DNA of 64,000 bases. Origin: a virus (Duplodnaviria > Caudoviricetes). Shown here one piece after another: positions 16,801 through 52,695 of the stretch. The translations under genes and the position numbers were made by a program. Location: the IMG/VR virus record IMGVR_UViG_3300027205_000173, positions 1-64,000 of that record; one strand, given 5' to 3'. The notes below the pieces were generated by a model, which saw only the letters and a program-made list of their open reading frames with translations, searched no databases and was not told the DNA's origin. Position 1 is the stretch's first letter. Each line of letters begins with the position of its first letter.

Positions 16801-17718
16801 ATATTTTTTTGCTTTTTTAGAAAGCACCAGTTCATCAAATGCGGTGTCGCCGCTTTCTATGCTTTCCCGTTGCGCTTCATCTATGTTGAGTCTCGGTTTG
16901 CTAATACTTCTCAATCCACTCATCGGCAGTCCGTTGACTCCAGGAATGGATGGGCGTTCAAATGGTGTGTTGTCTTGTATGCGACCGTCGTTATCCCCGT
17001 CCCAAGCGTTGACATCGAAAACTGCAGGACGTGTCAGATTACCTCCTAGTCCACCACCAAGAGCCTTGAACTTGACATCATCAGAAAAAGATTTTTTACT
17101 ACGTTTATTATTCTTTTTTAGTTTCTTTTCAATAGCGGCATTAATAACTCGCTCCAAACGTTCCTTCTGATGACGTCTACCTAAACTTGTAGTTCCAGAG
17201 AGGGACGCATAATCGGACATGTTTGTACAGGGCATCCAAACAGTCGCACCAGTTTTGGAGATGCGTCGACTAACACCCACACAGCCCAACTGACGAGAAC
17301 GCTGTCTTGCTGATTCGATGTCTGTAAAAACGTCAGCATCCTGATCACGAGGACCAAAAATATTAGGCAACGCTTTAGAACTCATCCCGGCACTATCGCC
17401 GCCAAAAGTTCCCGTAGAACTACCAGCAACTAGCCCACCGCCAGATAAATTACCTAAATTAAGAACACCAGTCTGAGAAAGATTCTCCCACTGCTTCTTG
17501 ATCTTGTTAGAACCTTTTAAAGTTCTTTTACCGCGATTCTGGGATATGGCATCCCTTGTGGCAGAAGCAATAACTGGAGCAACTCGTGTTAATTTGTCGT
17601 GTGAGGAACAGGGCATCCAGCGACCATCGCTATTTTGATGAGCGCCAGAACAGCCTAATTTTTGGGCCTCTCGTAACGCCCGCATTTTCTTATATGTGCT
17701 GGACGATGCAGATTTCAT
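10873..17718 (-). CDS. 2281-aa polyvalent protein: 2x WMPC (DUF3721-like) motifs, DxDxDG module, zincin, zeta-toxin-like kinase, possible ART, pentapeptide repeats, C-terminal ArdC
   Basis: LGCSG...WMPC x2; HEMGH...EWLAE; GGTTGSGKST...HIDPDEIK; (A/L)NL(S/T)x pentapeptides; WERPW...PRNASTKNSYKGFN...WATYKQW...YYATLSHELVHWTGH...YAFEELVAE. Confidence 0.85.
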   Translation of the reverse strand: MKSASSSTYKKMRALREAQKLGCSGAHQNSDGRWMPCSSHDKLTRVAPVIASATRDAISQNRGKRTLKGSNKIKKQWENLSQTGVLNLGNLSGGGLVAGSSTGTFGGDSAGMSSKALPNIFGPRDQDADVFTDIESARQRSRQLGCVGVSRRISKTGATVWMPCTNMSDYASLSGTTSLGRRHQKERLERVINAAIEKKLKKNNKRSKKSFSDDVKFKALGGGLGGNLTRPAVFDVNAWDGDNDGRIQDNTPFERPSIPGVNGLPMSGLRSISKPRLNIDEAQRESIESGDTAFDELVLSKKAKKYARKYLKLFESTFEPIDEKYRYMDDEELIDLIKSSMPGSAEELKQLVRTNPFTKNKARTAWSRLMQANPDFEATAKMRDAFIKQIKDNPGALEMVRRYGVPPIVATEYVPALAWYGNNTEGWGESGGGWAHLGVIAMNYTWVEFNHGMSIEDALRHEMGHAWEAMAAVQNEKARAHYALQFSELYEGLIQMSRNKEQVSSYHDAKWGNESEHASAAKISEYATTARIEWLAETIAALTSSDSSKRAKVDATARENISESFGIAPWEVEQIFTPIDGSGNFDSPISSLPSKRDADNPSLSDFLKKRYEIDEDSLSESAKWVEQNPEYLSDMSLSVQLSSSPGVQSQYRRSVVEGFRSYNSQGRQGSGGREMGQKILGRVNPEESNQDEPVLYFIGGTTGSGKSTLITRGIMEGVPNQSSAAHIDPDEIKTGLVGWNGGQGASAVHQASRVATDKIMDDAALQRMHVVVQGTGKRREHLSNMRRRGYKTSGHFVWIPDDLADQRVAQRKRNGGANIPTYFGSQIARELRSGPDSVSRQITDGLYDEFYLYDNSGDVPKLAARRLPDGSFEILDNQVFNSFFSPTGAKFVREYWESNSPSNKKNLTRAGMSSKRSLSSMGDRVGMRSRRLGEWEDVTDYDKFGESSIVLRNTYGEDSLRDLAEILENEQSSIKKSIAHWEKTGEWLGADFNVSMPRTPNAKSGVTKNHTAESLLKNQTKEEMKNNFDLYLNNIDTQLKHVRGRLKNIEEMDNGVEPAHVNFATLRDMRDFDALVKRGKEINELKNGDETPLISDDYIYLTHTGHPELENDVLDPNFTLHAGGGGISGRGTMDTRRLNKIGRDMVVRKYEEAEREITAWQEIVDDFSKTGEWRGSRLANALYPGSKKPSAKIFDDYSADDLDNKISSEYLLYEASNSIKFNNDVMKRLSKQYGPAKRNEEHLTYEFAGRGPNFGYTRADVPSSKTYLIRVPRDEATMEAGPSTFGEFQVFGQRKPVASFEFPSNVNDWDTMAAASAYFEKIAAKNEGLVLSGMRSRNQLGQSIEKDEIFGGLIFNGFTPKNPLTSKDLSNNNLRMAEMISIHVDPRIDFRNRNIDYANLTRANLDGINLTGSSLFGSNLSNLNGSGIIFGKDDSQPADLRYSVLSAAQMPNSQFEGVDLSGALMISTNLSKSNLKNVNFENAVLWNTDLRGADLRGSNITAEQLMNSKFNSTTKLPDGLSLPVAENNGTITQKPSLHKIPLGVIGSDDADLFLKNITDGVLKIDGPLGVKKSELLRRDLKKSEIMNTDLRRSTFSESTLSNSTMANVDLTASSLFRTNFDKSILNNVKFNYSNLIGANFRNATIGRGVSFKGANLTDANFADAKIQGKIDLSGADLTGAILDGVDLREAIVDSQTKLDGAIGLNRNKVPKMIARGFRSRNYSDISTEELTQTPGNVLLSDANDALLEIGKMSNANRPDANIDPLVSKIQIIYGHLNDVHGINEDLSIKNSELDNQISEVNNVIDQFGTFQFNDGPPIDVRKFIENKDKSGYIKAIKSSGQNVPLNVPINEWNNINSQLITRDMLNDRKDLLSPTTKIVKSKLNSSVATEAMLSDYGIMSNINNLPDFSIAEPVRKKRPTPSIASGELGPNEMLIYNSNNRPTISKIPKSQRIEQSINRVNGMASRSKPTSETGRANRSEEIYKTVSDALIAALEESVDGNWERPWNLGTTIPRNASTKNSYKGFNVILFSLVQQARKYDHPVWATYKQWEALGAQVQRGEKGLTGTKWVSRERNVKLPDGTSSKDTFLTPSAFTVFNIAQVTGANPDDFLPPRLSPEERIPALEEIFGQILPNIKTINGDSAYYSPASDYINMPPFTAFKDPNAYYATLSHELVHWTGHRDRANRPNMNRFGTPEYAFEELVAEIGSAYLMAILGMEATPQAQHAQYLKSWIEILKDDPSAIQRAASQAQKAVDYLISQSPKLQELSTPINVSQDLVEEA

Positions 17719-17749
17719 GTAGAGTAATCCTTAACATTCTAATTAACTG

Positions 17750-18106
17750 TTAGAGAGATGGTACCCCATCATCGTTAAGAGTTTTACCTTCGGCCTCAAG
17801 AGCAGCGGCCTGAGCCTCTTGGATGTCCTCGCCATAACGCACGCGATACAGTTCTGCTTCTTCAATATCGTTAATGTGTTTGGAAACAACGGTTCTGTAT
17901 GAGTCTTTAAAAGAATCATCACGTCCAGCGCCCATGTCATCATCTAATTTGTCAAGTTTTTTAGAAATAACGTCATACGCAGCAGACAGAGCAGTTTGAA
18001 ACTCTTCATATTTTTCAATATTCGTCGTAAATGGTGGATAATCCATCAATTGTGATAAATGTCCGTGCTGCTGCATGAACATTTTTTCATTTGGTCCTGT
18101 TTCCAT
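17750..18106 (-). CDS. Hypothetical protein
   Basis: 118-aa ORF with GGAGAAGGGG upstream, co-oriented within the operon. Confidence 0.7.
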   Translation of the reverse strand: METGPNEKMFMQQHGHLSQLMDYPPFTTNIEKYEEFQTALSAAYDVISKKLDKLDDDMGAGRDDSFKDSYRTVVSKHINDIEEAELYRVRYGEDIQEAQAAALEAEGKTLNDDGVPSL

Positions 18107-18118
18107 GGCCCCTTCTCC

Positions 18119-21100
18119 TTATGCCTTTGACTTAGCCAGTTTGACTGCGTCATCTCTCGTAAATGTATCACCAACGATGGTGATTGCCGTACGGTTATGA
18201 ATCAATTCTACGCCACTATCAGCCATAATTGTATCGTAACCCAATAATGGTGCATAAGAGTTGGAAGTTCTCTTTGTACTAATGAGTTCCAAGAATTCTA
18301 AAGCATCAAGCAACTCTTGTTTCTTGGAATCCGAAGAGCCACTTAACGATTCCAAAATCTTCGATGTCATCTGACCCATCTTGGTGGACATTGTTGATTC
18401 GTATATTGGCCCAAGTGAAGCACGCAAATGATCACGCAATTGAGTTACGTACTCTTCTGCGTTCATTTTTTCACGTTCCCCAGATGGAAGTCCTGCGTCA
18501 AAACTCTTGATTGATTTTGCTAAAGGAGCGTGCTCGGATTTGATTTTACCTAATTCCGCTTTACTGACGCGACGAGTAGATGGAGGGAGGAGGCCTACGG
18601 TTCCTGCAGGGAGACTTCCGTCCATCCAACTAAACCAACCGCCGCCGCCTTGAGTGGGTCTTGCCCAGTATTCGCCTTCACCCTGCGCTTCTCCACCCTG
18701 TCCTGTAATGAAGCGTACGGGGTCATCTAGCCAGTCATTAGCATAACGAACTCCATTCGCTCCGCCGCCGTGTCCTCGGACTACAGGCACCCATCCGGCT
18801 GCATGTAGCGTCTTGAACTCTTCCGCTGTAACGATATTTGGTGTTCCGTTATATCCGGCGCCATCCCAAAGAACAGCAAGTGCCCTATTTCTACTAACGC
18901 CACCCTTGGTTTTCTTCAATTTTGATTCTGTACGATAATTTTTCATCATCGTTGCAAGAGTTGGAGTTAATTTTTCGCCGAATACCAAGGAGCCTTGACT
19001 GTCGGTATGGGCTAGGCGTCCGTCTATGCGGTTGCCTGTTGACGAATTAGAGATACTGCCAATATCGCGTGTGCGATTTTTGCGCATTTCCTTGAGGCGC
19101 TTGCGGCGACGAATCTTGCGCTTGGCATCATCTACTGGGTTTGCTTCGCTAGTCGTGAATCCACCAGCATTAATTCCCTGACGACGTGCTTTACGCATTT
19201 CGCGACGAGCCTGACGGGCTGGGTCGGTATAAAGAATCTTGTCCGACATTCTCTTGTAATAAGCGTCAAGACGTTCCTTGAGTGGCTTCTTTTCGTTTTG
19301 TCCAACTTGTTCACGAATTGGCGTTCCGGTATCAATGGGATCACCCAATGGGCGTGGTGCCGTTGACGGTGTTTTCATTTCTTTACCGCTAGCAGAAATT
19401 CTAGTTTTCTTGCTGTCATCGCGTCGAGCATCGTCAAACAAGTAGCGTCGTGAAGTTGGATTTAGATGCTCCAGAAGGTCATGTACACCCCTGTTTGATC
19501 TCATGTTGTAGAGAGCCTGCAGGTCATTGAATTGCTTCTCTGCCTCAACTCTATTCTTTTCAGGATAATCGGGGTCATCAGCGAGCCTGGTAACGAATCT
19601 ATGTAATTCGTCCATCCATCCAGCGTTGCCGCCGTTCATCAAGTCCTTGTCCCAACCTTTTTTATCTGCTTCTTTGCTTGCTCTATCCCACCATCTTGGG
19701 AATCGTTGCTTGAATTCGTTAAGAAGCATCTTCTCGCGATTGACGGCACGGTCTGCGACAGTTGTTTTTTCTTCGTCCGATAGACGGCCCCATAGTTGTC
19801 CATCTGATGGATCAACGCGATCACGTCCTGGTACTGCGAAGCGTGGGTCCCTGAGGCCCTCAGAACGACGTGATGCCATTCCTTGAGGGCGAGCGGAGAT
19901 TTCCATTTCTGCTGCACGGATACGACCAGATGAGGGGGCCATGCGTGAACGCATACCGAAGTTTGCGCGTTCTGCTGTTAGGCCTTCACTTGGCATGTCG
20001 CCATGTTCACCGCCATCGACTACGCGATAACCTTCTTTTTTGATGTTGTTGATAATTCGGCCAGTGCCAGTTTCTCTTTCTAAATCTTCGATCCAGTAAG
20101 AGTCAACATCTTTGTATGTGTATGTACGTCCACCTGCGTAGGTGACAATAAGGTCTTTCTTGTCGTCGTCCCATGTGAGTGCTTCGATTGCCGAAGAACC
20201 GCTTACTGGAATTTGAGTTTTTTCGCGACGTCCAAGTCGGGAAAGTTTTCCTGTACCAATTTGCCCACCTGGACCTTGAATATCTTGATATTCAGGATCG
20301 AATGTGTGCACGCCGCCTTCGCGGAAATCGTGATTTTTCTTTATCTGATTTACTGCAGTGCCCGTCAAGACATAGTCGGGCCCAGATAGAGCATTATCTA
20401 AGTCGTCATTTGAAAAGTTTTTATATGTGTATGTTTTCCCATTTGCGTAAGTTACAACTAGTTCTTCTTTTTCTGCGTCATAACTTGCTTGTCGCAATGC
20501 CGATGAACCTGCTACTGAGACATTAAAATAGGGGCGCTGTTCCGTTGCCGTACTGGAGCGCATACCCATCTTGGCTTGTTTTTCATGATCTGCCTTCCAA
20601 TCAACATCTTTGTCATATGATGAAGATTTGGCAGGAATATGACCACCTTCTAGTCGATATCCACGCTGTTCTTTGCCTCGTAATAACTTGTGGAAATCTT
20701 CTTGAGTTTTACCTGAATAAACTTTTGTCTGAAGATTTCTACTGTCTGCCCTGCCCCAACTAACTGTGAGTGTTCCAGTTTCTTCGTCAAACTCTGCGAT
20801 ATATACTTTTCCTTCAGGGCCACCATTTTCACTTGGAGCACTCAGAATAATTTTATCTGACCGACTCACGTCTTCAGCACCATAATAAGGTCTCTCGGGA
20901 TAGATTACGTCTTGCAATCTTGCTGTTCTTGGCCATGTTTCGGCATCTTTGCCAAGGTGATTGGCTCTGATATTGGCATCACGCTTGAAGTCTCGGCCAC
21001 GTAGTTGCGTACTGGAACGCATACCACCTGAACGTGAACGGAAACCGGCGGCCCACTCAGCATCACTAATGCCGTAATACTTTTTTGGATCATTTCTTTC

Positions 21101-24100: not shown

Positions 24101-25750
24101 GCCGTCTCTTGTTTTGGTCCAGTCGGAATTGGAACGCATGCCAGAACGTGAACGCATGCCGCGTTCTTCGTCAAACCCTCTATCATCGGAACCACGCAAA
24201 ATTGATTCAAATACGTTCAAATGTTTCAACGCGCCAACATCTGCTCCGCGTTCCTGCTCAAGAGTTTCGCCGATCTCTTTGTTTCTTGCTACCAAACGAT
24301 TGGCCCTATCGTTTTCGTCAACCAGTACTTCTACTTCCCAGTTGCCCTTATTCCACTTGTCCCCATTTTTTTGCCAGCCATTCCTACTGAGAGACGAGTC
24401 ATAATCATTACGCGAACGCATGCCGCCAGAGTTACGGCGCTGCATCTCACGAGCCTCAAGACGACGAGCCTCAAGACGACCACCCTTCAAACCATACTTC
24501 TTCGCAGCCTCATCAAGATTCAAACCAGCATAACGATCCTCAATCAAACGATCAACGATCTCCTGCTCCGACAACTTATTCAACTCACCAGGAGAAAGCG
24601 GAGTCGCATCACCAAGATCGGCACGCTGACCACTACGCATACCCCGACGCGAAGCAATCTCCCTACGACGCGAACCAATATTGCCAGCAACATTACGAGC
24701 AGCAACAGAAACACGCTCACGCCCAGAAGTCGTAGTAGCAGGAACGCCACGATCATTACTTACGGCCTGAAGAAGACTCGCATCCCCACCAACACTGGCA
24801 ACAATATTACGTAACTTACCTTCATCAAACTGAACACTCGTATTACCGGCACGACGCTGTTTCTCAATCTCTTCAGCATCACCCTCAACGATTCCAGACA
24901 ACTTGCGGGCAAGGTCCTTCGGAACCATGAAACGAGGGATAATTGGTCGCTCTAGGCCCGGCTTACCTTCAAAAACAATACCGTCGGTATCAGCGTCGGT
25001 CACACCAGTAACGTCAACAAAAGACATGCCAGCAGGGGCAGCACGAAGACCGCCACTCAAACGACTACCAATCTTCGGACCAATACCAGCAGCCTTGAAT
25101 TCAATACCGAAAGACTGAGCAAGCGCCTGATCCTTGCGGACAACAGCAAGCATCTTTACGGACTTCTTACGAATAAGACTCAAGCCGATAGCACGCTGCA
25201 AAGAACGACCGTACGAGTCAATAATTTCTGCTTGCTTTACTTCAGGGGTGTGAATTGGGTTGCGTGAACTGAATACGCCTTCATTTGAAACGAATCCCAG
25301 TCTCTCTGCACGTACTTGAGTAAGCAATGATGAAACCTTGGAGTCGGTACGGAATGCGCGCGCCTTAAAAGCAATGGCTTCATTACGCTTGTCGATGTCA
25401 AATGCACGTAATTCTGCGTCACGAACACCAGGAACGACCGAAGAAGAGTTTTTGATCAAAGAATCAGAGATACCTTGCTTCTTATTAATTGAAGGATTAC
25501 GGAGCGATACAGTATCTACGAGTGCTTGAACATAGTTGGGGTTGGTATTACGAAGGGCCGAGTAACCGCCTACTACGACGCCTATTGGGAGACCATTGTT
25601 TTCACTTTTGACATTGATGCCGTTGGCCCACTTGGACCATTCGAGACCTTTGGCGCTTACGCCGTAAAATTTCGAGAGACCGTTACTATCAACGATCACT
25701 CCAAAAATACTGTCATTAATAGAATCTTTTAATAGGGCGTAACGATTCAC
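18119..25750 (-). CDS. 2543-aa polyvalent polyprotein (~17 GMRS-type motifs): DxDxDG module, many acidic modules, WGR, 2x KTSC, C-terminal ART-like domain
   Basis: LTVSWGR (WGR); SSALRQASYD...YTYKN and SSAIEALTWD...YTYKD (KTSC); VVRG...GEGEYW...LGYDTI...HNRTAI. Confidence 0.85.
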   Translation of the reverse strand: MNRYALLKDSINDSIFGVIVDSNGLSKFYGVSAKGLEWSKWANGINVKSENNGLPIGVVVGGYSALRNTNPNYVQALVDTVSLRNPSINKKQGISDSLIKNSSSVVPGVRDAELRAFDIDKRNEAIAFKARAFRTDSKVSSLLTQVRAERLGFVSNEGVFSSRNPIHTPEVKQAEIIDSYGRSLQRAIGLSLIRKKSVKMLAVVRKDQALAQSFGIEFKAAGIGPKIGSRLSGGLRAAPAGMSFVDVTGVTDADTDGIVFEGKPGLERPIIPRFMVPKDLARKLSGIVEGDAEEIEKQRRAGNTSVQFDEGKLRNIVASVGGDASLLQAVSNDRGVPATTTSGRERVSVAARNVAGNIGSRRREIASRRGMRSGQRADLGDATPLSPGELNKLSEQEIVDRLIEDRYAGLNLDEAAKKYGLKGGRLEARRLEAREMQRRNSGGMRSRNDYDSSLSRNGWQKNGDKWNKGNWEVEVLVDENDRANRLVARNKEIGETLEQERGADVGALKHLNVFESILRGSDDRGFDEERGMRSRSGMRSNSDWTKTRDGIEMDAPDIDGLYEIQGNNKEGFVVTRYSDGFRNGGQDTREYEHDRIFKSRAAAKKWAERDYDMASYGMRSRSGGMRSRSMREQKRIDSNLRAMDRATGGYASWDDDSWDNYRQVGRVLDGENLNQADRDMLEEVGGKIASGELLEELKPDDRRQVVSDFRMASGYADPTLEVEEKLGEFLTPDEVGNVMYNGVETLSGAKRKRAEKIIDDAANSRRELGMRYGGMRSRSGDDLDEESGLEARLKSGVKVTADDITDDEINDFMDEVHDNKQEILDEIFGAPTEDDLDEIGAGRDWGFEASGSRGSERDYIPDEDDLLSEHYDAMTDVLTENDYALAKEYIAEQINEQMKNYWAENWDDLSSDVQDRRFYDALKRIFDEKKPEYNQGWGWFDEEPKRDFRGYVIRPTDEEYDAAFGKWKEADAAYRQRESQARKEAKEEAKKQFEDEVKKYGPGGMRSRSGGMRSNSENPDNQIHMTSRELNAVDDRLSNIIESGRGGFSAEEENALNDFKDSIDNAGAAFDSIVMDDDVRDTLIDLFGNIAKNGDDPNGDAKNLLGLLESVRDADGNEFVTDELDRLGTMHDMNFDGSVMRAPGGVRRAMRRAMARRGNRDGRGMRSRTEPLFEAERLSGNDLSRAQDYKLFEAAMDSRRFDPNRLNDGEIDSDWIMDALNHYFYNTQVNDDLAADIEDLMVERDEKGQDPETRSAGFAKDNARSVIKHWQDSVDDDPDKMGDLLSSYEGDLVAAMEDHYDDYLNGQLDTFENRRESGMRSRSIKLRSDVKGAEEDIENEFDKWEKNLKGRYKNARQAEYGLQDLLVDLDKAANESATNDDDYERLNDFIDLIAKFIRRDIKDLFGFDDDYDDEEFDDDDYDYDALASGERQGMRSRGYRNDDDSDYGDDDYGVDRGDWDDDLDPDERRRIMDGMGRRSGGMRSRYSDDSADGYAEADAPDLDREDYENYIDTPTFEEHLNDWLVDNPGKNREDFINDPDGAELAWDSYMERNDPKKYYGISDAEWAAGFRSRSGGMRSSTQLRGRDFKRDANIRANHLGKDAETWPRTARLQDVIYPERPYYGAEDVSRSDKIILSAPSENGGPEGKVYIAEFDEETGTLTVSWGRADSRNLQTKVYSGKTQEDFHKLLRGKEQRGYRLEGGHIPAKSSSYDKDVDWKADHEKQAKMGMRSSTATEQRPYFNVSVAGSSALRQASYDAEKEELVVTYANGKTYTYKNFSNDDLDNALSGPDYVLTGTAVNQIKKNHDFREGGVHTFDPEYQDIQGPGGQIGTGKLSRLGRREKTQIPVSGSSAIEALTWDDDKKDLIVTYAGGRTYTYKDVDSYWIEDLERETGTGRIINNIKKEGYRVVDGGEHGDMPSEGLTAERANFGMRSRMAPSSGRIRAAEMEISARPQGMASRRSEGLRDPRFAVPGRDRVDPSDGQLWGRLSDEEKTTVADRAVNREKMLLNEFKQRFPRWWDRASKEADKKGWDKDLMNGGNAGWMDELHRFVTRLADDPDYPEKNRVEAEKQFNDLQALYNMRSNRGVHDLLEHLNPTSRRYLFDDARRDDSKKTRISASGKEMKTPSTAPRPLGDPIDTGTPIREQVGQNEKKPLKERLDAYYKRMSDKILYTDPARQARREMRKARRQGINAGGFTTSEANPVDDAKRKIRRRKRLKEMRKNRTRDIGSISNSSTGNRIDGRLAHTDSQGSLVFGEKLTPTLATMMKNYRTESKLKKTKGGVSRNRALAVLWDGAGYNGTPNIVTAEEFKTLHAAGWVPVVRGHGGGANGVRYANDWLDDPVRFITGQGGEAQGEGEYWARPTQGGGGWFSWMDGSLPAGTVGLLPPSTRRVSKAELGKIKSEHAPLAKSIKSFDAGLPSGEREKMNAEEYVTQLRDHLRASLGPIYESTMSTKMGQMTSKILESLSGSSDSKKQELLDALEFLELISTKRTSNSYAPLLGYDTIMADSGVELIHNRTAITIVGDTFTRDDAVKLAKSKA

Positions 25751-27771
25751 TCAAATCCTCCAAGTATGTTCCGGATTGAATCTCCGGCTCTTTCTAGGGA
25801 GCCAATTCTTTGATTGACTATCCTTTGTATTATTCCTAAATGAATTTTTTCTGTTTCAGTCAATTTTCCATCAATGGTAAATCTGGCTTGATATTTCTCA
25901 AAATTGAACGCCCGCGCCCGTTCTAGCAACTTATTGATAATGGCAAGGAATTGTCTTTTTTGTAGACTCTTCAACTCTCTATAATACTCCTCATAGGAGC
26001 CATTCTCAGCAAGTGATGTCATTTGTGCAATGAGTTCTTCGGCGGTCTTGACTTTTTTCTGAACCTCTACGAAGTCGGGCAAGTTGATGGTTGGAACAAC
26101 AGCATTTTTATCTGACAATTCTATAATGTCAATACTTGAGGGCGACCTATTGGCGTCCCCTGTCAATAGGTCGGAAACTAAGAGTGCTGCAACATGAGAA
26201 ATATCGCCATCTTTAAATAATTTGGTCGTAGATGGGGTATTGCCTGGGTAAACGGTTCCGGATGTTTCTTTCAAATATGGACGACGTGGGCCCATTCCAT
26301 ATGGATAGATATCTGGAGATTCAATACCAAAATGTTGCTGAATGTCTGAAACGAGGGTGGCGTCAAGGTGTTCAAAGTCGTTAAGTGGCGTGATTGATAA
26401 ATATGATCTTCCATTGGGGCCATCAAAAATCTTTTGATTATTCCCAATATTGCGTGCTTTAAACAAACCTGCTTGAATAAGTGCCTGTTGAAGAATGTCG
26501 GGAGAAATTGAAGCAAGACTTCCACCCGCCGCAATATGAGCAACTGCCTCTTGAATGGACGTTATTTTCTCAGAAATCCCAGATTCAGAAGAGGTCTGTC
26601 TTGCTTCGGGCAACGGCTTGCTCTTGCGGTTGGCGAATACTTGACCCACCCAACTTTCAACCATTTTGCCATTTCTTGCAGCGATTCTCTTATGAGGATT
26701 ACTGACCCCAATGAAATTTTCGGAATATTGAATTCCGTCGCCAGTTTCTTCGGCAACAGACATCAGTCTTGCTGCGGCAATCTGACTATTATCAATACGG
26801 GATGCAGCATTGACTGTTCTGCCCAGTTTGCGACGTTCGCCAACGGTCAATGGTCTAACTTTTTCTAGACTAAGTGTCGATCCACCAGGTAAAACGTACA
26901 TAATTTTGGTTACTCCAGTATTTGAGAGTAACCCAAGTTCTTCGCCACCAAGGGAAGAAACATTATTTGCATTTAAAATATATGCCGCCCCTTCCATGTC
27001 ACGATTATCGGGAATAGTTCTCAAAACTTTTGGAGAAACTACTGGTTCCAAAATGAATCCGTCACGCCGTACCATTCTCTTGGCATCAAGATTCGGCTGA
27101 TTCATGTCCTTTACAATTTGCCTAATACTTTCAAGTTGCTTCTTGACATCACTGTCAGTAACTCGCGGAATCTGTGGAGCGCGAGAATCAATAACTGACC
27201 CGCCATACTCTCCCGGGGTTAACGCTGTACCTTCTATAGTGATGGGTTTGAGGTTTGCCTCCCGACGCAATGCACGCAGGGCGGATATGACTAGACCAAG
27301 TGGACCAGGGATATCGAATAGTTTTGCTCCACAGGTCGTAAATTGGTTATCCGTAAAACGACCGCCATACTGGTAGCCCTCAGGGCATCTGTGGACCTTG
27401 TCGCGACCAGTGCGTATGCGTGGTCGCATGGGGATGCTGGGGACACCGGGGGTCAATAAAGAGAATCCCGTAGAACGAACCGGACTTCTTAGAATCGACG
27501 AATCACCAGGCAGGAAGTATGAACCAACTGCCTGTGCGGTTTGTCCAATAGTGGAAGACGAGCCAATCGTGCCAACACGTTTGACCCGATAATTATCACC
27601 AAGGCCAAGCATTTTGACCATGGCTTTATAGTTGACAATTTCCTGTTTCGATGCTACTGAACCAATAAAAGCATTACCATCGGCATTTTTTGTTGTTAGA
27701 ACATGACGTTTAACAACAACCTCCTGGTTGGGGCAACATTTACTTGGTTTAATGATCTCAAAAGAGTTCAT
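25747..27771 (-). CDS. 674-aa protein with RCPxG..FTD motif and degenerate JAB-like and HipA/PI3K-like kinase domains
   Basis: RCPEGYQYGGRFTD; MEGAAYILNANNVSSLGGEEL (JAB-like spacing without the His residues); DLLTGDANRSPSSI (compare DxLxxNxDRHxxN). Confidence 0.55.
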   Translation of the reverse strand: MNSFEIIKPSKCCPNQEVVVKRHVLTTKNADGNAFIGSVASKQEIVNYKAMVKMLGLGDNYRVKRVGTIGSSSTIGQTAQAVGSYFLPGDSSILRSPVRSTGFSLLTPGVPSIPMRPRIRTGRDKVHRCPEGYQYGGRFTDNQFTTCGAKLFDIPGPLGLVISALRALRREANLKPITIEGTALTPGEYGGSVIDSRAPQIPRVTDSDVKKQLESIRQIVKDMNQPNLDAKRMVRRDGFILEPVVSPKVLRTIPDNRDMEGAAYILNANNVSSLGGEELGLLSNTGVTKIMYVLPGGSTLSLEKVRPLTVGERRKLGRTVNAASRIDNSQIAAARLMSVAEETGDGIQYSENFIGVSNPHKRIAARNGKMVESWVGQVFANRKSKPLPEARQTSSESGISEKITSIQEAVAHIAAGGSLASISPDILQQALIQAGLFKARNIGNNQKIFDGPNGRSYLSITPLNDFEHLDATLVSDIQQHFGIESPDIYPYGMGPRRPYLKETSGTVYPGNTPSTTKLFKDGDISHVAALLVSDLLTGDANRSPSSIDIIELSDKNAVVPTINLPDFVEVQKKVKTAEELIAQMTSLAENGSYEEYYRELKSLQKRQFLAIINKLLERARAFNFEKYQARFTIDGKLTETEKIHLGIIQRIVNQRIGSLERAGDSIRNILGGFE

Positions 27772-28768: not shown

Positions 28769-31535
28769 TAATATTACTCAATTTACCCTTTGGGAAAAGC
28801 CAACTAAGTAACTTATCAAACAATTTAATTTCGTCAGAAGTTAATGCGCGTTTTGAAGTTGATCGACCGTCAACATCCTCATGAACCTGAATAGGTATAC
28901 CAAAAGCATCATAAACTGCCAACTCGGCCATCAACTCCGAACTATCGGGATTCGATTGAAGAAAACTAACGATTCTCCTATTGAGCGCCGTTGACATATA
29001 GTTCCTGTATCCCGGCTCGGCAGACTGTCTAGCCATATCAATAATACTTTTTACATCATCATCTTTCAGCGAATCAAAATGCCAAAAATCCATACCAGTA
29101 GTTTCCATGATGGTTCCAAGAGTTGCGGGATCGGCATTTTTTGCAAGAGGAGCAAAAGAATTAATAATGGACATTTCTGCAATATTTTTCAACCCGTCCA
29201 CATCATCTATTGCTGCCATATCCTGAATTGTCCGCGCGTTTAATTGTGATGAATGCAACAACGGCCCAGCAACATCAGTTGGGGTGTGTCTAAAAGACCC
29301 AACAGCACGAACACTTCTTAGATCAACGCCAGAATGAATAATTCTTCCGACCATACCCATTGCAGAATTGACGGAATCAGCGATCAATTTTCCTGATTCC
29401 TTAGATAGGGGGCGAGTTTTCCCTCGCTGCATCACGAGTGCCGGGTATCCCTCTTGCCTAATCAACGTTAATGCATTACTGGCAACAGTCTTGTCTTTAT
29501 CGTAATACAATTTGATTCCCGCAAATTGCCTTCTGGCATCCTGTCTCTGAAGGCTCAGGATTCTTCCGTCTGCAAGCATGTGTGCTTGTGCAAAAGTAAA
29601 ATTATCTCCTTCTTTATAAGGATATCCGTCACCAAAAACACTTTGTCCGCTCATAGATTCAAGGCGATTAAAAAGATCAGCAATTTCTTTATTTATTTTA
29701 ATAACCGAACCATCTTTGTTATAAAGAGGCTGATTCATAAAATCTTCTAAGGTGTTTTGCGCATCCTGATTGCCAGTAGATGATGCCTTATAAGCAAGGT
29801 TTTTAAATACATCAGAAAATATCCTATTCAAAACTACCGCATTCATGTCGGTTGCATCATCCAAAATTTGTTTCAATTGTTTTTTATCCATGGATTTTGT
29901 CATCATTGAAGCAATTTCGGGGATACCAACAGAGGGATCAACACCGCGTTGAAGTAGATAGGCCGACATATCTTCGTGCATTTGCGCAAGGTGTGCGGCA
30001 TGTGTGGCTTCGTGTATAGCCGTAGACCTGGCCAAAACAGACCACATCTCTTCATGGTATTTGAGAGCACCCTTGGCCTGATCTGTAAATCCGTCAGATA
30101 TAACAGATGATTGATTCTTTACAACGTCGCGAACTTTTTCGATAAGCCTAATCGTTGCTCCATTATCAAACATGTTGTCAGGGATGACTCCAGCATCCAT
30201 CAAGTACTTAATAGTGTCCATTGTTGCTTGATCAACACCAGGAAGCCGTGCGTCTGGGTTGGAACCAAATTGGGGAGTAACTAAATCAATAAAATTGCCC
30301 AAAGAGTTATTCATATTATTGTAATTGAGAAATTCATAAACAGACATCAAGGCCTCGTCATCCAACGATCCGCCCAAACTCTCCGCCATTCCGCTCATCA
30401 TGGCGGAACCAATAATATTTGAACTTACATCAAATCGACCTTCACTGAATAGGGTGGATGGACTCGCCATCCTGTACATCGGGTCCATGGGGTGACGATA
30501 AGTAATGGTGATTTTTGGTGTTCTATTTTTTGTAGCAACATACGCCCCATTGACTACAGTCCATTGATGTCCTGATTGATAGCGAGTTGATCCACCAACA
30601 CCCGGCTCATCACCTATACCAAAAGGTTTCATGTCATAAGAAAACTTTTTCATACTTGGGTTAGCGTGCAATGCGAGCAAGAACCCAACAATATTTTCAT
30701 AAGCGTAAGATTCTAAAGGCTGATCGTCTGGTCCGTCTAGGAAATCAAATCGTGATTCACCACTAGCAAAACTTGGTAATTCATTCATTAATATTCTTTT
30801 AACATCACCGATTGATGTAATCGGTTTACCGTCATTGAATCTTTTTTCAAGAAATTTATCTTGTTTTATTATTGTTTGACGAATTTGATCAACCGAAATC
30901 GTTGCGAACCTATCGACAGGAGAAGATGATGTTCGTACCCTCATCCCCTGAGCACGAACAGATTTTGGAATTCGTATATTCGCTACATCTAAACCAGGTA
31001 TGAATGGACGCATCGTAGGCAAGCCATCATCAATGAATCCATCATTGTCACCGTCATAACCAGCACGAACAGGACCAAGAATTTTAGAATTCATCCCCAT
31101 GATTGTGCGATTGGATGATCTCCGATTACCAAGCGCCGAATTCGGCATCTTTTCAAATTGTTGAGAAAATACCAATGACTTAAATGCCATGATTTGATTG
31201 TTCTTACTCTGAGCAACAAGGCGTTTCTTGGGCTTTTTCTTAACTTCAACATCCTTGATGAGGCTTTCATCGACTGGCTGTGTGCGATTCATAAAAACGC
31301 GCTTCCAGCGATCAGCCATCTGTCCTTCTGCTCCATCCCATAAAAACTTATGAAATGGGGTAGAACGAATTTCGTTCATATCAGGGTTACTACTAATAAA
31401 AGAAACTAGATCAACTGGAGTTTCGGTTTCCTGGGAGTCGATAAAGATTGCATTCTTTTCAGTGGGGTTAGCGTCGGCGTTATAGAACAATTTCCCCTCT
31501 CCTGTATTTCCAACAAAAATAAGACGCGTAGGCAT
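28755..31535 (-). CDS. 926-aa protein with DxDxDG module and zincin (HEATH) motif
   Basis: YDGDNDGFIDDGLPTMRPFIPG; GMRVR motif variant; AIHEATH with a distal ELMAE. Confidence 0.75.
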   Translation of the reverse strand: MPTRLIFVGNTGEGKLFYNADANPTEKNAIFIDSQETETPVDLVSFISSNPDMNEIRSTPFHKFLWDGAEGQMADRWKRVFMNRTQPVDESLIKDVEVKKKPKKRLVAQSKNNQIMAFKSLVFSQQFEKMPNSALGNRRSSNRTIMGMNSKILGPVRAGYDGDNDGFIDDGLPTMRPFIPGLDVANIRIPKSVRAQGMRVRTSSSPVDRFATISVDQIRQTIIKQDKFLEKRFNDGKPITSIGDVKRILMNELPSFASGESRFDFLDGPDDQPLESYAYENIVGFLLALHANPSMKKFSYDMKPFGIGDEPGVGGSTRYQSGHQWTVVNGAYVATKNRTPKITITYRHPMDPMYRMASPSTLFSEGRFDVSSNIIGSAMMSGMAESLGGSLDDEALMSVYEFLNYNNMNNSLGNFIDLVTPQFGSNPDARLPGVDQATMDTIKYLMDAGVIPDNMFDNGATIRLIEKVRDVVKNQSSVISDGFTDQAKGALKYHEEMWSVLARSTAIHEATHAAHLAQMHEDMSAYLLQRGVDPSVGIPEIASMMTKSMDKKQLKQILDDATDMNAVVLNRIFSDVFKNLAYKASSTGNQDAQNTLEDFMNQPLYNKDGSVIKINKEIADLFNRLESMSGQSVFGDGYPYKEGDNFTFAQAHMLADGRILSLQRQDARRQFAGIKLYYDKDKTVASNALTLIRQEGYPALVMQRGKTRPLSKESGKLIADSVNSAMGMVGRIIHSGVDLRSVRAVGSFRHTPTDVAGPLLHSSQLNARTIQDMAAIDDVDGLKNIAEMSIINSFAPLAKNADPATLGTIMETTGMDFWHFDSLKDDDVKSIIDMARQSAEPGYRNYMSTALNRRIVSFLQSNPDSSELMAELAVYDAFGIPIQVHEDVDGRSTSKRALTSDEIKLFDKLLSWLFPKGKLSNISEAK

Positions 31536-50700: not shown

Positions 50701-52695
50701 CTGACGGTCATCCTGTTCATCAAGTTCTGCATCAATATCCGAGTCGCCCGAGCGCGAACGCATTCCCTGCTGGCGTCCCTTGCTAGGTTTTGTTTCTCTT
50801 AAATTGGGGAATGGTGGAAAGGGGCGAGTTCTTTTTTCAAATTCTTCATCAGTTTCATCAAACTTCTTACGAGGTTTGCCGGTTCCTAGATCGAATGGCA
50901 GGTCAGAACCAATAGGTTGCATTTCGCCACGTGAGCGCATGCCACCATCATTAGTGCCTGATAAACTCTGTAAGAGATTAGGGTTACCACCGATATCGTC
51001 GATGATTGAACGTAGTTTCTTTTCATCAAAAGAAACATTGCCATTACCTGAGCGACGTTGCTTTTCAATTGCTTCGGCATCTCCCTCGACGACTGCCGAA
51101 AGTTTTCTGGCAAGGTTCTTGGGTACGATAAAGCGAGGAATAATTGGTCGTTCCAAGCCTGGCTTGCCTTCAAAAACAATGCCGTCAGAGTCGGCGTCAG
51201 TAACGCCAGTAATGTCAACGAATGCCATGCCTGCAGGAGCCGCACGCAAGCCGCCCCCTAGTTTCGGACCAATTTTGCCACTAAGGGCTTTTATTCTGGT
51301 CTTGGGGGCGTCTTTGGTGTTAGGCGCCCCATCACCTTTTTTTGAACCACCGCCACCATCTAGGTAGGAGGAGATATTTTTGTGGGCTGATCTGAGTGCC
51401 TGTAGTGAATCTTCGTTGATCCCGCTAGTGATATGGACTCCGTAGTCGTCAACGTGTGCTTCTAGGCGATGGTAATTGAGTACGGGGTCTAGTAGTGACT
51501 TGACCTCGTATGCATATTGTGGCTTGCACCATACCGAATATTCCAAGGCAGTTTTTTTCTGCTGTCCACCAGCAAGATTGCGCAAATAGTCGATGGCATC
51601 TTGGATTTTCTGCAATTCGCTTTCCTTGATTGTTTCATCTTCTCCGGCGTTAGAAAGAACTTCGACTGCCTGATCAAGTTGATCATCAAATGATTTCATC
51701 ATCGAAACTGGCTGCTGGGAATCACCATAGGACTGGGTTACATATCCTGGCTTAACCATCATCGGCATCGAAGGCATTTGCGATGGAACAATCTGTTGTG
51801 AAGCCATCTTCTCTGGCTTGCCGAACATGTATCTGCCGCTTTGTGACTCGCGATGGTACCCAATTCGATAAGTCATGCGGGTTCCGTCTGGCATTGTGCG
51901 ATCAAAAACAACGCTGTTTTCGGTTGCGTTCACTACTTTGAGTGGGCTTGCTGATCGTGAAGATAATTCCATTTCAAGTGCGGCACGAGCCTCGCCGCCA
52001 AGTTGGCCAGATTCTCCTGAAGCAAAAATGTCTGTTCGTTCGTTTGCTGCTGGGAATGTTTGCGGTTTTGCTGGGGAGAGGTTAAAGCGAGGGATGTCGA
52101 TAGCCGTCGAACCAGGTCGACTTTGACGCATTCCGCCCTGCATTCCTTCTGGACCACATTTTTCGCCATTTTCGTCGCTTTTGACGGAAAGTGTGGCAGT
52201 GAGTTGGTTTGCTCCGTGGAGAACAGGGCTGACTTCGTATAATTCAACTTCACGCAGGACGTTGGCTTGCATTGTGGGATCAAACGTTGCTTGAAGTGTC
52301 TTGTAGCCGATTGACCATTCTTGTTCTTGTCCAAAGAATGCCACGCTGCCAAATCCTTCGCGTCCCTTTTCCGTTGCAAGGTTGAATTGGACGCGAGCGT
52401 ATAGTCCACCGACCCCGGCCATCTTCATCTTCATGGGGATACGTGGGTCGTTTGCTGGTACTTCGTAGATTTCTAGAACTTTACCGATAGGGTCATTCCA
52501 GTTGTGTCCCCAGACCACGCGTGGCTTACGACGCTTGAGGCTTTCCGTAAATGCACCGCTGATGATCACATCGCCTACCGAATCCTTATTACCGATGGCG
52601 GCTACAAAACATTCAACGATTCCTTGCGCTGAGTCAATATTAATTTGACCATCAAGCGCTTTGAAAAGTATGTCTGACGTCGAGAAATTGGACAT
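41719..52695 (-). CDS. 3658-aa polyprotein: N-terminal HK97-family (S78) prohead protease followed by ~24 GMRS-delimited modules, including KTSC
   Basis: DSVGDVIISGAF, VWGH (catalytic His), WSIGY (catalytic Ser), LYEVSPVLHGAN; the domain ends at SVK|S near 52180. AAGGAG SD; directly downstream of the portal gene. Confidence 0.92.
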   Translation of the reverse strand: MSNFSTSDILFKALDGQINIDSAQGIVECFVAAIGNKDSVGDVIISGAFTESLKRRKPRVVWGHNWNDPIGKVLEIYEVPANDPRIPMKMKMAGVGGLYARVQFNLATEKGREGFGSVAFFGQEQEWSIGYKTLQATFDPTMQANVLREVELYEVSPVLHGANQLTATLSVKSDENGEKCGPEGMQGGMRQSRPGSTAIDIPRFNLSPAKPQTFPAANERTDIFASGESGQLGGEARAALEMELSSRSASPLKVVNATENSVVFDRTMPDGTRMTYRIGYHRESQSGRYMFGKPEKMASQQIVPSQMPSMPMMVKPGYVTQSYGDSQQPVSMMKSFDDQLDQAVEVLSNAGEDETIKESELQKIQDAIDYLRNLAGGQQKKTALEYSVWCKPQYAYEVKSLLDPVLNYHRLEAHVDDYGVHITSGINEDSLQALRSAHKNISSYLDGGGGSKKGDGAPNTKDAPKTRIKALSGKIGPKLGGGLRAAPAGMAFVDITGVTDADSDGIVFEGKPGLERPIIPRFIVPKNLARKLSAVVEGDAEAIEKQRRSGNGNVSFDEKKLRSIIDDIGGNPNLLQSLSGTNDGGMRSRGEMQPIGSDLPFDLGTGKPRKKFDETDEEFEKRTRPFPPFPNLRETKPSKGRQQGMRSRSGDSDIDAELDEQDDRQFRENRLDAPRKKPQKSMRELREENRLKRQRDAAEYDTEAMLDEWADDQRNMEREDRGMRSRGYVGPPDSWYEPDDDPLEPIMENVGEEWSRMDSDRYYETARDWTRENVDKYKDMTDDEWDSLLDDVNESDDPIAAMEKLFKEYNNSDAFDDDIQKAAESDLENAQEEDRGWVRGFRSRSGDPEIDYQLDEQDDRQFRENRLNAPRKKPQKSMRELREENRLKRQREAENDPEYIQYMLDEQADMQRDMEREERGMRSTSQRKIYSDQVAADRARKVLEDDGVDPRDLFQGDDESTQDYLDRITPLIEKYAPEIFDGRSLDEFVSKDNISEVNKLIDNAYSNNDVIREGLDVRVFNDGMGDASESRLWMDFVDTEVDVADGPAGSFLQDSGLVDYIETEGDSDGGWSWSIDVSKASPEDKKRFVASAVSDAIMSHEGSWGRDGFVLRDKDRGMRSRRGPTYNEQFEDLDQDSDHFENLLERTVEIMIEDDELDPKDVDWSNILDNEKVMSRAEEMWNSDVQTHWENVGERQRDDVGMRSRLGDAVRKQGREIGKDLKREAKKFAREKGRELLDDAVDNIFDRNRRDRGMRSRRFREDSKPDKKLKPAYGRRGPVQALQNMSDEELIKLLQSYGETAWRPWDRNPQSSSLLLRDRPSLSSLVQELDSRGYDVYQSEGREPEYFGDYSAGDKSVYARKRGQEPSTLPNGGMSSGEEEKGTQDVIDSQLEDRRRSESKTWKATVPDDYKPSDGALETLTPAERRLLETFKPKSKAQRKQEMLDSFRNQAKRDVDSNKPYDTWDWYPTFEEWDQEYKKKLRQYRKAQRKAYAHDLEKGNVKPVEERAVQQTGWSVENLDWDNFKPKPLRFGSYDGPRDVPELLRGFRSKITDGLRNERNNSVEPKVTKEQRAFDILAQMSQRSGQKFGLSDKELQDIFDGDQRINPELMKIVRSELKRQGFTKDDVADVLSGRYAGYARNQISGPSDDGERIFESEMESIANRAFLESMDILSDGLTVDEFQDFVSSGRIPQGKESILRRANEVYDNIVKDSDKQRTMGLRSRTGRNIDAEIDTNIKKQRDLEKELDDEKIDLAEFRRRQAPLRQEFSDLRKEQGAESATRKAPELDATGRPRREMIERDEKGKVKFDSEKFLAEQNDKRRLTMSELGFTEDEINTLMGASSSGMRSRSGSHENFKNTRDAYLSKNSEGIVNKLEELTQRRNELDAKSKELMDQYYANGRDFNDEENDLFDEIENELDSVNDEIKGITDWAKYAVSEDTQRLVGRTGTTKARVAYKKMLDDGDINQEEYDALITDLIDPAFFDDEHWDSVDAISFVSNLRDNFEGSEFDDIDPDYLITEKIDDLSSDFADEKVTEALDRLKNGGMRSRSGKKNNSEKRKMNTKLTPDQVRIMQEQKLRSKKIPGKKKDGPSTNEWGFRSREDFGNSAGAAIGYISEIFSKDDKNLSSNEKYLRNHLLDNGVKIDFYRADREGSVGSDISLRDNAKANMDDKLDALVNAISKDKRASDILSNNGFLMDDRAWESAPSYKNRPNRKGPKLGDRERGVEARANIIDLAPGDVLPENWDDETSAVGEPMVRIADIRSDGQEDGYVTMVLENMSDGTTETRTFGTNDTFPNVSRPSGSRGGRQQGMRSRRSYDDESGSRGVREGVAESEHFEGFMWIDQLKGDNVDADVIPLADIYGDDRPGYGVVGVYRTDDGFGGIEYFYGGDDEEFDSVEDAMDFLQNVDDQGNEGILYGDPEFRSLDRVRAAGKPGRRPLEGMRSQTNSGSTNMEDATDEELKNLMNDWFDVTDGKVSVDDPLEKKKIRDSYFAAKQEIDRRRKENKSRKPGTNSKPTSGMRSRRSYDDEGGSGGVREGVAESKYNTGSKWIDRLNGENVDAEVIPLADIYGDDTPGYGVVGMFRTEDGVEYFYGGADDEEFDSVEDAMDFLQNIEDQGNDDVFYEDEQFRSLDRVRAAGKPGRRPLEGLRSRSGGTSANVEADRRDAAHDSRLNLMSPNYLDELSRREDVQTRLNVANNDMAYLETIKDLLEDENLEVRKAADKNIQRRFGAIANQPSSDARKPASRQRRQAARKYLIKHEERMKKAGLRSRSNREEGLEVGEKFKPGEIIRRNKDRDIEPRRFAAAAKRPPDDPDDPDDVQEIADGMRSKAGTGLGESREIYPSRRMAESSAVDFVRYDAAKEELVVQYKGGGAYVFGGISADDADSIEEAESLGKALNDVKRNATYSVKPNGDVNGVESTTVDFLERDLRRIPMSEDEKSVYGNAIELLRNGITEDSDLERVQSQVTNISNLANDMWGNDEYAASNFLSEAAEKINKKLNIARGGGGFRSRAGARHQKMEVNLSVDEIGLIRDEIRGITAKHGGNGMITYGMKKYDNLLEELQNQKKSNPGRSLTILSSEYDNVMTAYDELEKVDPSWIKMFGADPLEMASVSKEGKYTSPNVDMPGEEFDGKRINNGAPADITPRMQGQLVDWGRRQPNFRIVKGLVEAHKKNNGTMTARQWSTLRNMFDRFSEENRSGGVRSRVGSGMRSQTGSAVSTSRPGKGKGPRTAKDALPENYETLSLDEKFDALISAGKYDESTNPNGIQVGEYNAAFRRLRDAEDQQDRITARREALAERMKRSAEAGPVTRRPEVMEQDSPRRADDAETTPENRAALAKKVRQKQMSTIEKVVAKAQDSISGAIIDGDAEDEHGRLWDEVMDLVQAEDGGDDTDLTLSKLSSIIEALDDYTIGFDGEEMSPAERKSVNNATKLKNTLEELYDDIDSDPFIKRGNTSREQAGVSLGGEEDDNPTPRFMTGEGLRSRSSLVNGYIGSRKNAERQPKAGMRSRSGTEQDGRAEIRWEATEFNKVEQSLSREISEAQRSGDSKTANSLRNLTKIMDRQKSGDVGGKRTNAGALYLTQSELDDVMDALMHVVDRQTQTDGSRTNMFAQMLDKLAEAGMTTFIRKTAKPVNSRFVEKTNESGRTVKIPLNE
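44740..45765 (-). repeat. Duplicated ~130-aa module (45361-45765 and 44740-45137), each copy bounded by GMRS/GLRS
   Basis: RRSYDDE.G..GVREGVAES...VIPLADIYGDD.PGYGVVG...FRSLDRVRAAGKPGRRPLEG(M/L)RS occurs twice. Confidence 0.9.
49928..50766 (-). repeat. Duplicated ~80-aa module (50523-50766 and 49928-50178), each copy bounded by GMRS/GFRS
   Basis: RSGD..ID..LDEQDDRQFRENRL.APRKKPQKSMRELREENRLKRQR...MERE.RGMRS occurs twice. Confidence 0.9.

Follow-up and report, generated by a model that had tools for sequence, protein, structure and literature searches.

How very large internal or ejected proteins, such as virion RNA polymerases and anti-restriction polyproteins, enter phage heads is poorly understood outside T4. 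The question is raised anew by a virus (Duplodnaviria; Caudoviricetes) represented by IMG/VR record IMGVR_UViG_3300027205_000173, of which the first 64 kb, hereafter called the window, were analyzed; the record spans 124,933 bases and its completeness was estimated at 84% by CheckV. Four long proteins of the head operon in this window (P0001 to P0004) each carry one copy of a short module built around the motifs DxDxDG and RPxIP. The original prediction held that the module is a capsid-targeting or co-assembly signal analogous to the T4 capsid-targeting sequence (for background on T4, see PMC3012670 and PMC9958956). What is this module, and what might it do for the proteins that carry it? The analysis described below indicates that the module represents a sequence family not described before, which is common among related phages and occupies a known functional niche, and that it marks the border where the conserved front of a protein ends and exchangeable cargo begins. 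Judging from its sequence and surroundings, the module probably helps to load or release capsid cargo.

The module and its relatives

A six-frame regular-expression scan of the window returned exactly four occurrences of DxDxDG, together with four of RPxIP in open reading frames (ORFs) and a fifth in a non-coding frame, where the match is interrupted by a stop codon. Each DxDxDG has an RPxIP as its partner, with 9-10 residues between them, on the minus strand and in the same four ORFs (Table 1). When the window was scanned with a hidden Markov model (HMM) built from ten copies of the module, the four copies scored at E values from 1e-17 to 1e-28 and the next best frame at 0.88, and no fifth copy was found in the whole 125-kb record. 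The four proteins with K-x-(L/A)-G...DxDxDG...RPxIP that had been predicted are thus real, and the window holds no other copy. The long stretch of similarity reported for P0004 and P0002 is equally genuine: their copies are 80% identical over a 69-aa core and 64.5% identical over 124 codons, and a helical extension after the core is common to both. The P0001 copy is the one nearest to the commonest type among relatives, FDPNAWDGDxDG..ERPAIPGVN. As to position, the module is N-proximal, as was claimed, but it is not N-terminal, for it starts at aa 469 in P0004, 219 in P0002, 218 in P0001 and 151 in P0003.

Among 1.84 billion representatives of metagenome protein clusters, 250 were matched by the module profile at E ≤ 1e-3, of which 57 also pass the stricter limit of E ≤ 1e-10, and at least 186 matching stretches were found in IMG/VR. 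The matching proteins are mostly 500-5000 aa long and carry the module N-proximally, near aa 20-80, 205-280 or 400-620. Over this wider set, the consensus reads (E)-hydrophobic-K-A-L-G, a Gly/Arg-rich spacer, and F-D-P-N-A-W-D-G-D-x-D-G-(I/L)-V-Q-E-G-T-P-F-E-R-P-A-I-P-G-V-N. An alignment of 64 diverse copies shows no variation in the three Asp residues of DxDxDG or in the Arg of RPxIP; an additional Asp upstream, the loop Gly and both prolines are kept in at least 90%, and loop position 10 is E or D in the listed copies. The Lys-containing start is also recurrent: K[AGSTI][LIAV][GSAD] lies 10-39 residues before DxDxDG in 81 of 103 full-length modules, an approximately ninefold enrichment over the 0.09 expected per search window.

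No established counterpart of the module was found in the reference collections searched. By hmmscan at E ≤ 10, the four window copies matched no Pfam family, including the Excalibur (PF05901), EF-hand, dockerin and TSP3 models, and PHROGs at the same limit gave only two weak matches of unknown function (E 0.013 and 0.32). A tblastn search of 50,697 deposited phage genomes gave nothing for the P0004 module, for the consensus peptide (in which DGDGDG was possibly masked) or for fragment P0129, and a prophage search of prokaryote genomes, one per species for 185,579 species, gave no confirmed relative. The module is likewise absent from the head regions of Brevibacterium phage Cantare, Gordonia phage GMA6 and Streptomyces phage Gilgamesh, and literature searches brought up no account of the motif in phages.

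Binding of calcium or another divalent cation by the module is plausible, because the Asp residues of DxDxDG are invariant and because the module profile cross-hits a protein with seven Excalibur repeats (P0086). The two share the DxDxDG loop with an acidic position 10, as in DxDxDGxxCE of Excalibur, but the module lacks the Cys of that family, has its own conserved (E/Q)RPxIP tail and matches no Pfam entry. An FrpC-like Asp-Pro self-processing module was considered and dropped, as the D-P before the loop is not conserved (D-V, D-A, N-P and V-D-I-T occur). When the P0004 module was modelled by AlphaFold2 with a 64-row alignment, a mean predicted local distance difference test (pLDDT) score of 69 was reached by the best of five models only, and the single sequence gave 39.6. 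In the predicted structure, aa 484-579 (pLDDT 78-85) form short strands around the loop followed by two helices, and the KALSG...GGLRAAP stretch (pLDDT < 50) is modelled as disordered. Searches with this moderate-confidence model gave best values of E 4.2 (PDB) and E 2.4 (BFVD) in Foldseek and of Z 3.4 in a wide VIA-align run, and no fold match was found, to a known cation switch or otherwise; the ESM Atlas returned only sub-threshold leads (< 0.9) for the module and none for the class A N-domain described below.

Conserved fronts, variable cargo and gene layout

In the best 150 of the 250 clusters, the regions upstream of the module form four homology classes, which are exactly those of the four window proteins: class A, with 26 clusters resembling P0002; class B, with 25 that have an S78 protease and a 'mid' region (S78 confirmed by Pfam in the samples tested); class C, with 19 resembling P0001; and class D, with 16 resembling P0003. 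Another 55 clusters have the module within the first 80 aa. Downstream of the module, the length and content of the cargo vary widely among orthologues. P0003 is the sole carrier conserved in relatives over its full length (class D, 920-1114 aa), and its class D orthologues keep the module at aa 130-155.

The proposed confinement of the module to head-operon proteins was borne out by the HMM matches, which were not mainly in non-virion proteins: in 79 of 79 IMG/VR loci, each module ORF lies between the portal and the major capsid gene, in one conserved gene order. Two arrangements are seen in these loci, namely TerL on the minus strand and portal followed by S78::module::cargo, or class A followed by class C and the capsid gene. 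Larger contigs combine both in a single genome, together with class D and an 'N-type' giant protein in which a short leader precedes the module. The only matches outside head operons were the Excalibur-type cross-hits P0086 and P0160. As a control, 49 IMG/VR loci of unrelated ART-PolyVal polyvalent proteins were inspected, and none carries the motif.

The carriers are polyvalent proteins, in that several unrelated conflict or effector domains are joined in one polypeptide and coded beside virion genes. By Pfam, P0001 contains DUF3721, Zeta_toxin, pentapeptide repeats, ArdC-N and MPTase-PolyVal, a KTSC domain occurs in both P0002 and P0004, and the neighboring giant P0005 carries an RNase_T / DEDD exonuclease; wider matches add ART-PolyVal, InPase and portal or MuF fusions. 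Polyvalent proteins of phages and conjugative elements were described by Iyer, Burroughs, Anand, de Souza and Aravind (2017; PMC5512222), who proposed processing by the zincin MPTase; that paper contains no shared entry module and nothing relevant on calcium, linkers or proheads.

The original prediction also placed the module just ahead of the first GxRS, a candidate protease site. Scored as G-[MLFVI]-R-S in 34 distinct carrier ORFs with at least three motifs, GxRS was downstream of the module in 225 of 226 instances and upstream in one, where 45.7 upstream would be expected at the downstream density; the module therefore closes a motif-free N-terminal unit. The median gap between the module and the first GxRS is 51 residues, and it is 17 or fewer in 12 ORFs. 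The predicted order holds for P0004, P0002 and P0001 but fails for P0003, which has no GxRS, the nearest sequence being GMRVR from aa 197. Because 43 of 99 distinct carrier ORFs lack GxRS altogether, the module is the more general feature of the two.

Distant matches contain a compact version of the module, at two to five copies per protein and between domains. This short form reads hydrophobic-K-(A/S)-x, 5-10 residues, and D-G-D-G-D-G-(F/I)-(I/V)-(Y/F)-D-G-T-P-x-x-R-P. It stands after a portal and an InPase domain and before an ATLF domain in P0057, after MuF and around a GNAT domain in P0120, around ART-PolyVal domains in P0070 and P0147, and around HipA-like and PI3/4-kinase-like domains in P0054, a protein for which no relative was found in IMG/VR. 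Each copy precedes at least one further domain, and none is C-terminal.

The position of the module relative to gene boundaries is informative as well. In the related loci L009-L014, the protease and mid region form a separate ORF of 462-515 aa, and the module-cargo ORF comes next in the -1 frame, overlapping at a run of A7 or A8 (L009:9938-9968). From the upstream stop to the module, these loci offer no ATG, GTG or TTG, and the cargo would therefore be made only as a frameshift fusion to the protease. With this gene break falling just upstream of it, the module belongs to the cargo side and not to the protease.

In E. coli dnaX, which encodes tau and gamma, an A AAA AAR heptamer is followed by a stop one codon into the -1 frame and by a hairpin 6 nt downstream. 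The same layout is found ahead of the module in P0004. After the heptamer A AAA AAA (Table 1), the -1 frame reads AGG TGA and so stops after one codon, and a GGGGCG/CGCCCC hairpin begins 6 nt downstream (-20.5 kcal/mol, z -3.49, with 0 of 200 shuffles folding as well). An in-frame A AAA AAA run with an immediate -1 stop is also present in L001-L005 (AGA TAG in L002), and the signal is confined to the window's subclade. With heptamer, -1 stop and a structure at 5-9 nt, the site is by sequence a candidate dnaX-like programmed -1 frameshift, and it predicts a short protease of about 454 aa in addition to a long protease-module-cargo form. A -1 slip would truncate the product in the window's group but would fuse protease and cargo in L009-L014. 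P0001 has a second in-frame heptamer 17 codons before its module, where the -1 frame meets two stops after a single codon; four close relatives retain this heptamer, which may be due to chance. Slippery sites before the other classes were rejected as not significant, given a Lys-rich background of 0.12 per 50 codons and the origin of all cases in one subclade.

Possible roles: docking, cleavage or cargo

The reading we tentatively prefer is that the module is a shared docking tag, which would bring its carriers together at a single prohead partner and later be parted from the cargo. It is favored because the conserved unit is large and predicted to fold, because it occurs on proteins that are otherwise unrelated, and because its copies co-evolve within genomes; the predicted fold of the extended form, at a pLDDT of about 80, is more than a bare cleavage site needs. 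Class A and class B modules of the same genome have a mean identity of 0.71 (five genomes), compared with 0.47 between genomes, and orthologues of the same class in different genomes reach 0.48 (A) and 0.45 (B). Several carriers of one subclade also share a specific tail, RF-x-VPK-x-LARK in the window's group and GVNDRSTGG or GINTNLPG-x-x-HTR-x-KP in two others. For the P0004/P0002 module pair, pS is 0.73 (saturated), dN 0.31 and dN/dS about 0.11, at 62.6% nucleotide identity. Recent gene conversion as the source of the likeness was rejected on the basis of this pS value, and because synonymous sites are saturated the likeness is kept by selection instead. Co-evolution of the copies within a genome indicates a common partner, though not which one.

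If the module is a docking tag, it would be a portable cargo-entry element that polyvalent proteins loaded into the capsid have in common throughout a large clade of uncultivated, HK97-like phages. Its first half would be a flexible, basic, Gly-rich stretch that opens with hydrophobic-K-(A/G/S)-(L/I)-G, and its second half a compact DxDxDG...RPxIP knot whose four invariant or nearly invariant acidic residues probably hold a divalent cation. The front before it may be the S78 protease with its mid region, one of three other conserved N-domains or a leader of 10-60 residues, and the cargo behind it would be divided by candidate protease sites. Through the module, four to five different carriers per phage would dock to one partner in the assembling prohead, for which the capsid or scaffold interior, the protease and other modules are candidates, and over 1 MDa of cargo would enter the head in this way. 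Cleavage during maturation at the first GxRS, and perhaps also at the Lys of K-A-L-G, would then part the tag from the cargo.

Several points weigh against a docking tag. In other lineages, two to five copies of the short form separate the cargo domains of one protein, including proteins whose portal or MuF fusion by itself ensures incorporation, whereas one address per polypeptide should suffice. In L009-L014, where cargo would be made only as a protease fusion, the protease could itself be the address, and P0005 has GxRS-delimited cargo without the module. A shared protease would drive the same co-evolution within genomes as a shared docking site, and binding, packaging and cleavage are all predictions from sequence. 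The repeats between domains and the frameshift fusion are no less compatible with a cut-and-release junction than with an address label.

That the module is such a junction comes close to the docking tag in likelihood and is possible, if on balance unlikely. The N-terminal parts would then be the address, by Gag-like co-assembly, and the S78 protease would dock at the module and cut after the Lys of hydrophobic-K-(A/S)-L-G, with the calcium-loop half as an exosite or structural stop. The ninefold excess of K-(A/G/S)-(L/I)-G upstream of the loop points in this direction, as does the predicted disorder of the K-A-L-G half, which would leave it accessible to a protease. The maturation site of HK97 gp5, K103-S104-L-G with the cut between K103 and S104, resembles the K-A-L-G of the module, and so does EFKALDGG in the window's capsid protein. 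The latter is kept as EFK[AST]Lx[GN]G in 12 of 12 aligned capsid orthologues, about 110 residues from the N-terminus; lying near the expected end of the scaffold (delta) domain, it may be the scaffold cleavage site. A junction would also account for the recurrence of the short form between the cargo domains of portal-, MuF- and ART-bearing polyvalent proteins, and for a frameshift layout that yields a short protease and a long protease-cargo fusion. However, it leaves about 35 strongly conserved residues and a folded unit of about 95 aa unexplained, and a far more regular candidate site than K-A-L-G is already present in GxRS, a motif that does not resemble K-A-L-G and that the capsid protein lacks. 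Moreover, HK97 S104 has its positional homologue in the capsid protein near aa 140, not at aa 111, and K-[AGS]-[LI] also occurs in unrelated places such as the protease N-terminus. When the N-terminal 162 aa of the capsid protein were aligned to solved structures with a view to the maturation site, only chance matches resulted. By analogy, docking tag and cut junction are compatible with each other: the T4 targeting sequence is address and cut site at once.

It is improbable that the module is itself cargo, namely a first, conserved cassette that cuts after the Lys of K-A-L-G and at the first GxRS would set free as a small cation-binding protein, 50-150 aa in length. Such a protein might be a clasp or switch responsive to calcium, keeping internal proteins within the virion and releasing them in the low-calcium cytoplasm, with each of the four to five genes supplying one copy. 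In the window a candidate site lies on either side of the module, its extended form is predicted to be an autonomous small fold, its invariant acidic residues and the profile cross-hit to Excalibur repeats would suit a cation-binding product, and several copies per genome and per protein would raise the dose. Excision cannot be general, though, with 43 of the 99 carrier ORFs devoid of GxRS; the common short form is too small to fold alone, and the fold searches matched no known cation switch. Least probable by far is that the module has no function of its own, being a tolerated linker or a junction that aids recombination of cargo cassettes in the way the VENN motif of CdiA toxins is thought to help swap theirs: it does sit at a conserved/variable sequence border with cargo that differs widely among orthologues downstream, but the 62.6% nucleotide identity, saturated synonymous sites and dN/dS of about 0.11 point to selection on the protein and not on DNA homology, D, D, D, G, R and P are invariant or nearly so over wide divergence, and linkers do not co-evolve across paralogues.

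The head operon and known loading systems

Features of the window that bear on these readings are collected in Table 1.

Table 1. Positions of the module copies, motifs and neighboring genes in the window.
Feature	Position	Strand	Residues	Remarks
Portal	52815-54839	-	674 aa	Pfam Phage_portal, E 5e-45
P0004		-	3658 aa	opens with S78 (HK97-type) prohead protease
P0004 front part ahead of module	51337..52695	-	453 aa	S78 protease (aa 24-170) plus 'mid' region; Pfam Peptidase_S78, E 4.8e-10
Candidate dnaX-like -1 frameshift signal	51305..51343	-		heptamer A AAA AAA at 51337-51343, 16 codons upstream of P0004 module
Module in P0004	50959..51291	-	aa 469-579	HMM E 1e-28; core KALSG to RPIIP at 51136-51291
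P0004 DxDxDG	51181-51198	-		regular expression
P0004 RPxIP	51136-51150	-		regular expression
First GMRS of P0004	50932..50943	-	aa 585-588	first of 24 candidate sites, all 24 downstream of module
Operon order after P0004		-		709-aa protein, P0005 (2662 aa), P0003 (926 aa), 214-aa protein, 674-aa protein, P0002 (2543 aa), P0001 (2281 aa)
P0005	31535-39523	-	2662 aa	
HEFGH in P0005	37835-37849	-	aa 559	HExxH motif
Module in P0003	30996..31085	-	aa 151-180	HMM E 2e-17; KILGP - YDGDNDG - MRPFIP
P0003 DxDxDG	31038-31055	-		regular expression
P0003 RPxIP	30996-31010	-		regular expression
HEATH in P0003	30000-30014	-	aa 508	HExxH motif
Module in P0002	24755..25096	-	aa 219-332	HMM E 1e-28; same extended type as P0004
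P0002 DxDxDG	24980-24997	-		regular expression
P0002 RPxIP	24935-24949	-		regular expression
First GMRS of P0002	24632..24643	-	aa 370-373	motif scan
DUF3721 copy in P0001	17599-17679	-	aa 13-40	E 2.6e-14; class C N-domain
DUF3721 look-alike in P0001	~17220-17310	-	aa ~140-170	GC-x-G...WMPC
Heptamer A AAA AAG in P0001	17113-17119	-	aa ~201	
Module in P0001	16942..17067	-	aa 218-259	HMM E 3e-25; KALGGG - WDGDNDG - ERPSIP
P0001 DxDxDG	16984-17001	-		regular expression
P0001 RPxIP	16942-16956	-		regular expression
First GxRS of P0001, GLRS	16906..16917	-	aa 268-271	starts 8 residues past end of RPSIP
HEMGH in P0001	16324-16338	-	aa 461	HExxH motif
HELVH in P0001	11191-11205			Pfam-recognised MPTase
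EFKALDGG in capsid protein	10192..10215	-	aa 108-115	resembles hydrophobic-K-A-L-G module start
Major capsid protein P0009		-		last in listed operon; Pfam Phage_capsid, E 3e-45

The minus strand of the window holds one long head operon, and the large terminase is divergent, on the plus strand. An HK97-type set of head genes is present, consisting of the portal, the S78 protease (E 5e-10) and a capsid protein with an N-terminal scaffold region, and the genes for all polyvalent giants of the window stand between those for portal and capsid protein. Against solved chains of HK97 gp5, the capsid protein scores E 1e-56, and it is longer than they are by about 110-150 residues at its N-terminus. The nearest cultured relatives by portal, Cantare and GMA6 (portal identity 40-43%), infect actinobacteria. 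The catalytic part of the P0004 protease is 41% identical to the 417-aa stand-alone protease of Cantare, and the P0004 front part is about the same size as the stand-alone proteases of the nearest cultured phages.

A few further features of the operon were noted. The Pfam portal domain stops at aa 382, leaving about 290 C-terminal residues without a family, and the cultured portal relatives matched by tblastn align over aa 4-410 only. P0005 has five GxRS motifs, all past aa 1260, and lacks the module, as do its orthologues in L090 and L094. In addition to the MPTase of P0001 that Pfam recognizes, HExxH motifs occur in P0003, P0001 and P0005. From its sequence, P0003 could be another enzyme of processing, acting for instance on GxRS, which is missing from the capsid protein. 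The class C N-domain of P0001 contains a DUF3721 copy and a second look-alike of it. In the cultured Streptomyces phage Gilgamesh (L021, MN234216.1 31978-45852), a 13.9-kb gene annotated as 'hypothetical protein' lies downstream of a portal-MuF fusion gene, separated from it by one small membrane-protein gene; the first 8.6 kb of this giant gene are without the module, and it may serve as a tractable model for head-operon giants.

Comparison with known loading signals shows how far the proposed analogy with T4 reaches. The T4 capsid targeting sequence (CTS) of IPI-III and Alt comprises about ten residues at the extreme N-terminus and ends in L/I-x-E, where gp21, the T4-type prohead protease, cuts it off; a separate scaffolding core also takes part. 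Like the CTS, the module is a short peptide common to otherwise unrelated proteins, head-internal in T4 and head-operon-encoded here, that stands upstream of a maturation site (here a candidate one) with exchangeable cargo behind it. Unlike the CTS, it is 30-110 residues long, contains a DxDxDG loop, belongs to an S78/HK97-type system and usually follows an N-domain of 140-470 aa. None of the four window copies is at the extreme N-terminus, though 55 related clusters have the module in the first 80 aa. The adjoining protease is a Peptidase_S78, the candidate sites are GxRS and the Lys-Ala bond of K-A-L-G instead of L/I-x-E, and there is no sequence similarity between CTS and module. The predicted analogy is supported only in part: confinement to head operons and co-evolution within genomes fit a shared partner, but the features by which the T4 CTS is defined do not carry over.

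Closer to the window's own type of head, the HK97 maturation protease reportedly has a C-terminal encapsidation tail, said to have been described by Duda, Oh and Hendrix in 2013. Such tails and the cargo-loading peptides of encapsulins are short sequences that tether a protease or other cargo inside an HK97-fold shell, and the module directly follows a protease of the same family as that of HK97. They differ from it in being C-terminal on short proteins, whereas here the short protease product would end before the module; between the G-S-L-K/R motifs of encapsulin peptides and (L/I)GGGLR of the module there is a loose resemblance in sequence. By analogy, the module resembles the T4 CTS and the HK97 and encapsulin loading peptides in its proposed role and is a member of none of these groups. 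The frameshift recalls not only dnaX but also Gag/Gag-Pol, where a short anchor product is made next to a long one with anchor plus enzymes. It differs in that the predicted long form is the zero-frame product in the window and needs the shift in L009-L014. Taken further, the docking-tag reading could make the module the coupling piece of an unrecognised loading system for HK97-type capsids, a proposal that we consider unlikely as a whole. In such a system, four to five giants, including the protease, would be gathered by cation-dependent contacts between modules or between module and shell, the dnaX-like frameshift would set the share of protease that drags cargo along in the manner of Gag and Gag-Pol, and the tag would be cut once the shell has closed. 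A stretch of 40-110 residues would then be enough to bring any chosen protein into a shell of the HK97 fold.

The module provides a sequence-defined, strongly conserved and apparently undescribed mark of the cargo start in hundreds of capsid-operon polyproteins, and the protease and capsid protein beside it are closely related to those of HK97, the best-studied assembly model. Should the module be a cut site, it would reveal what S78 proteases across a large branch of the family are specific for, and how polyvalent proteins are released. Should it work as a tag, it could be used as a tool to package foreign proteins in HK97-type shells.

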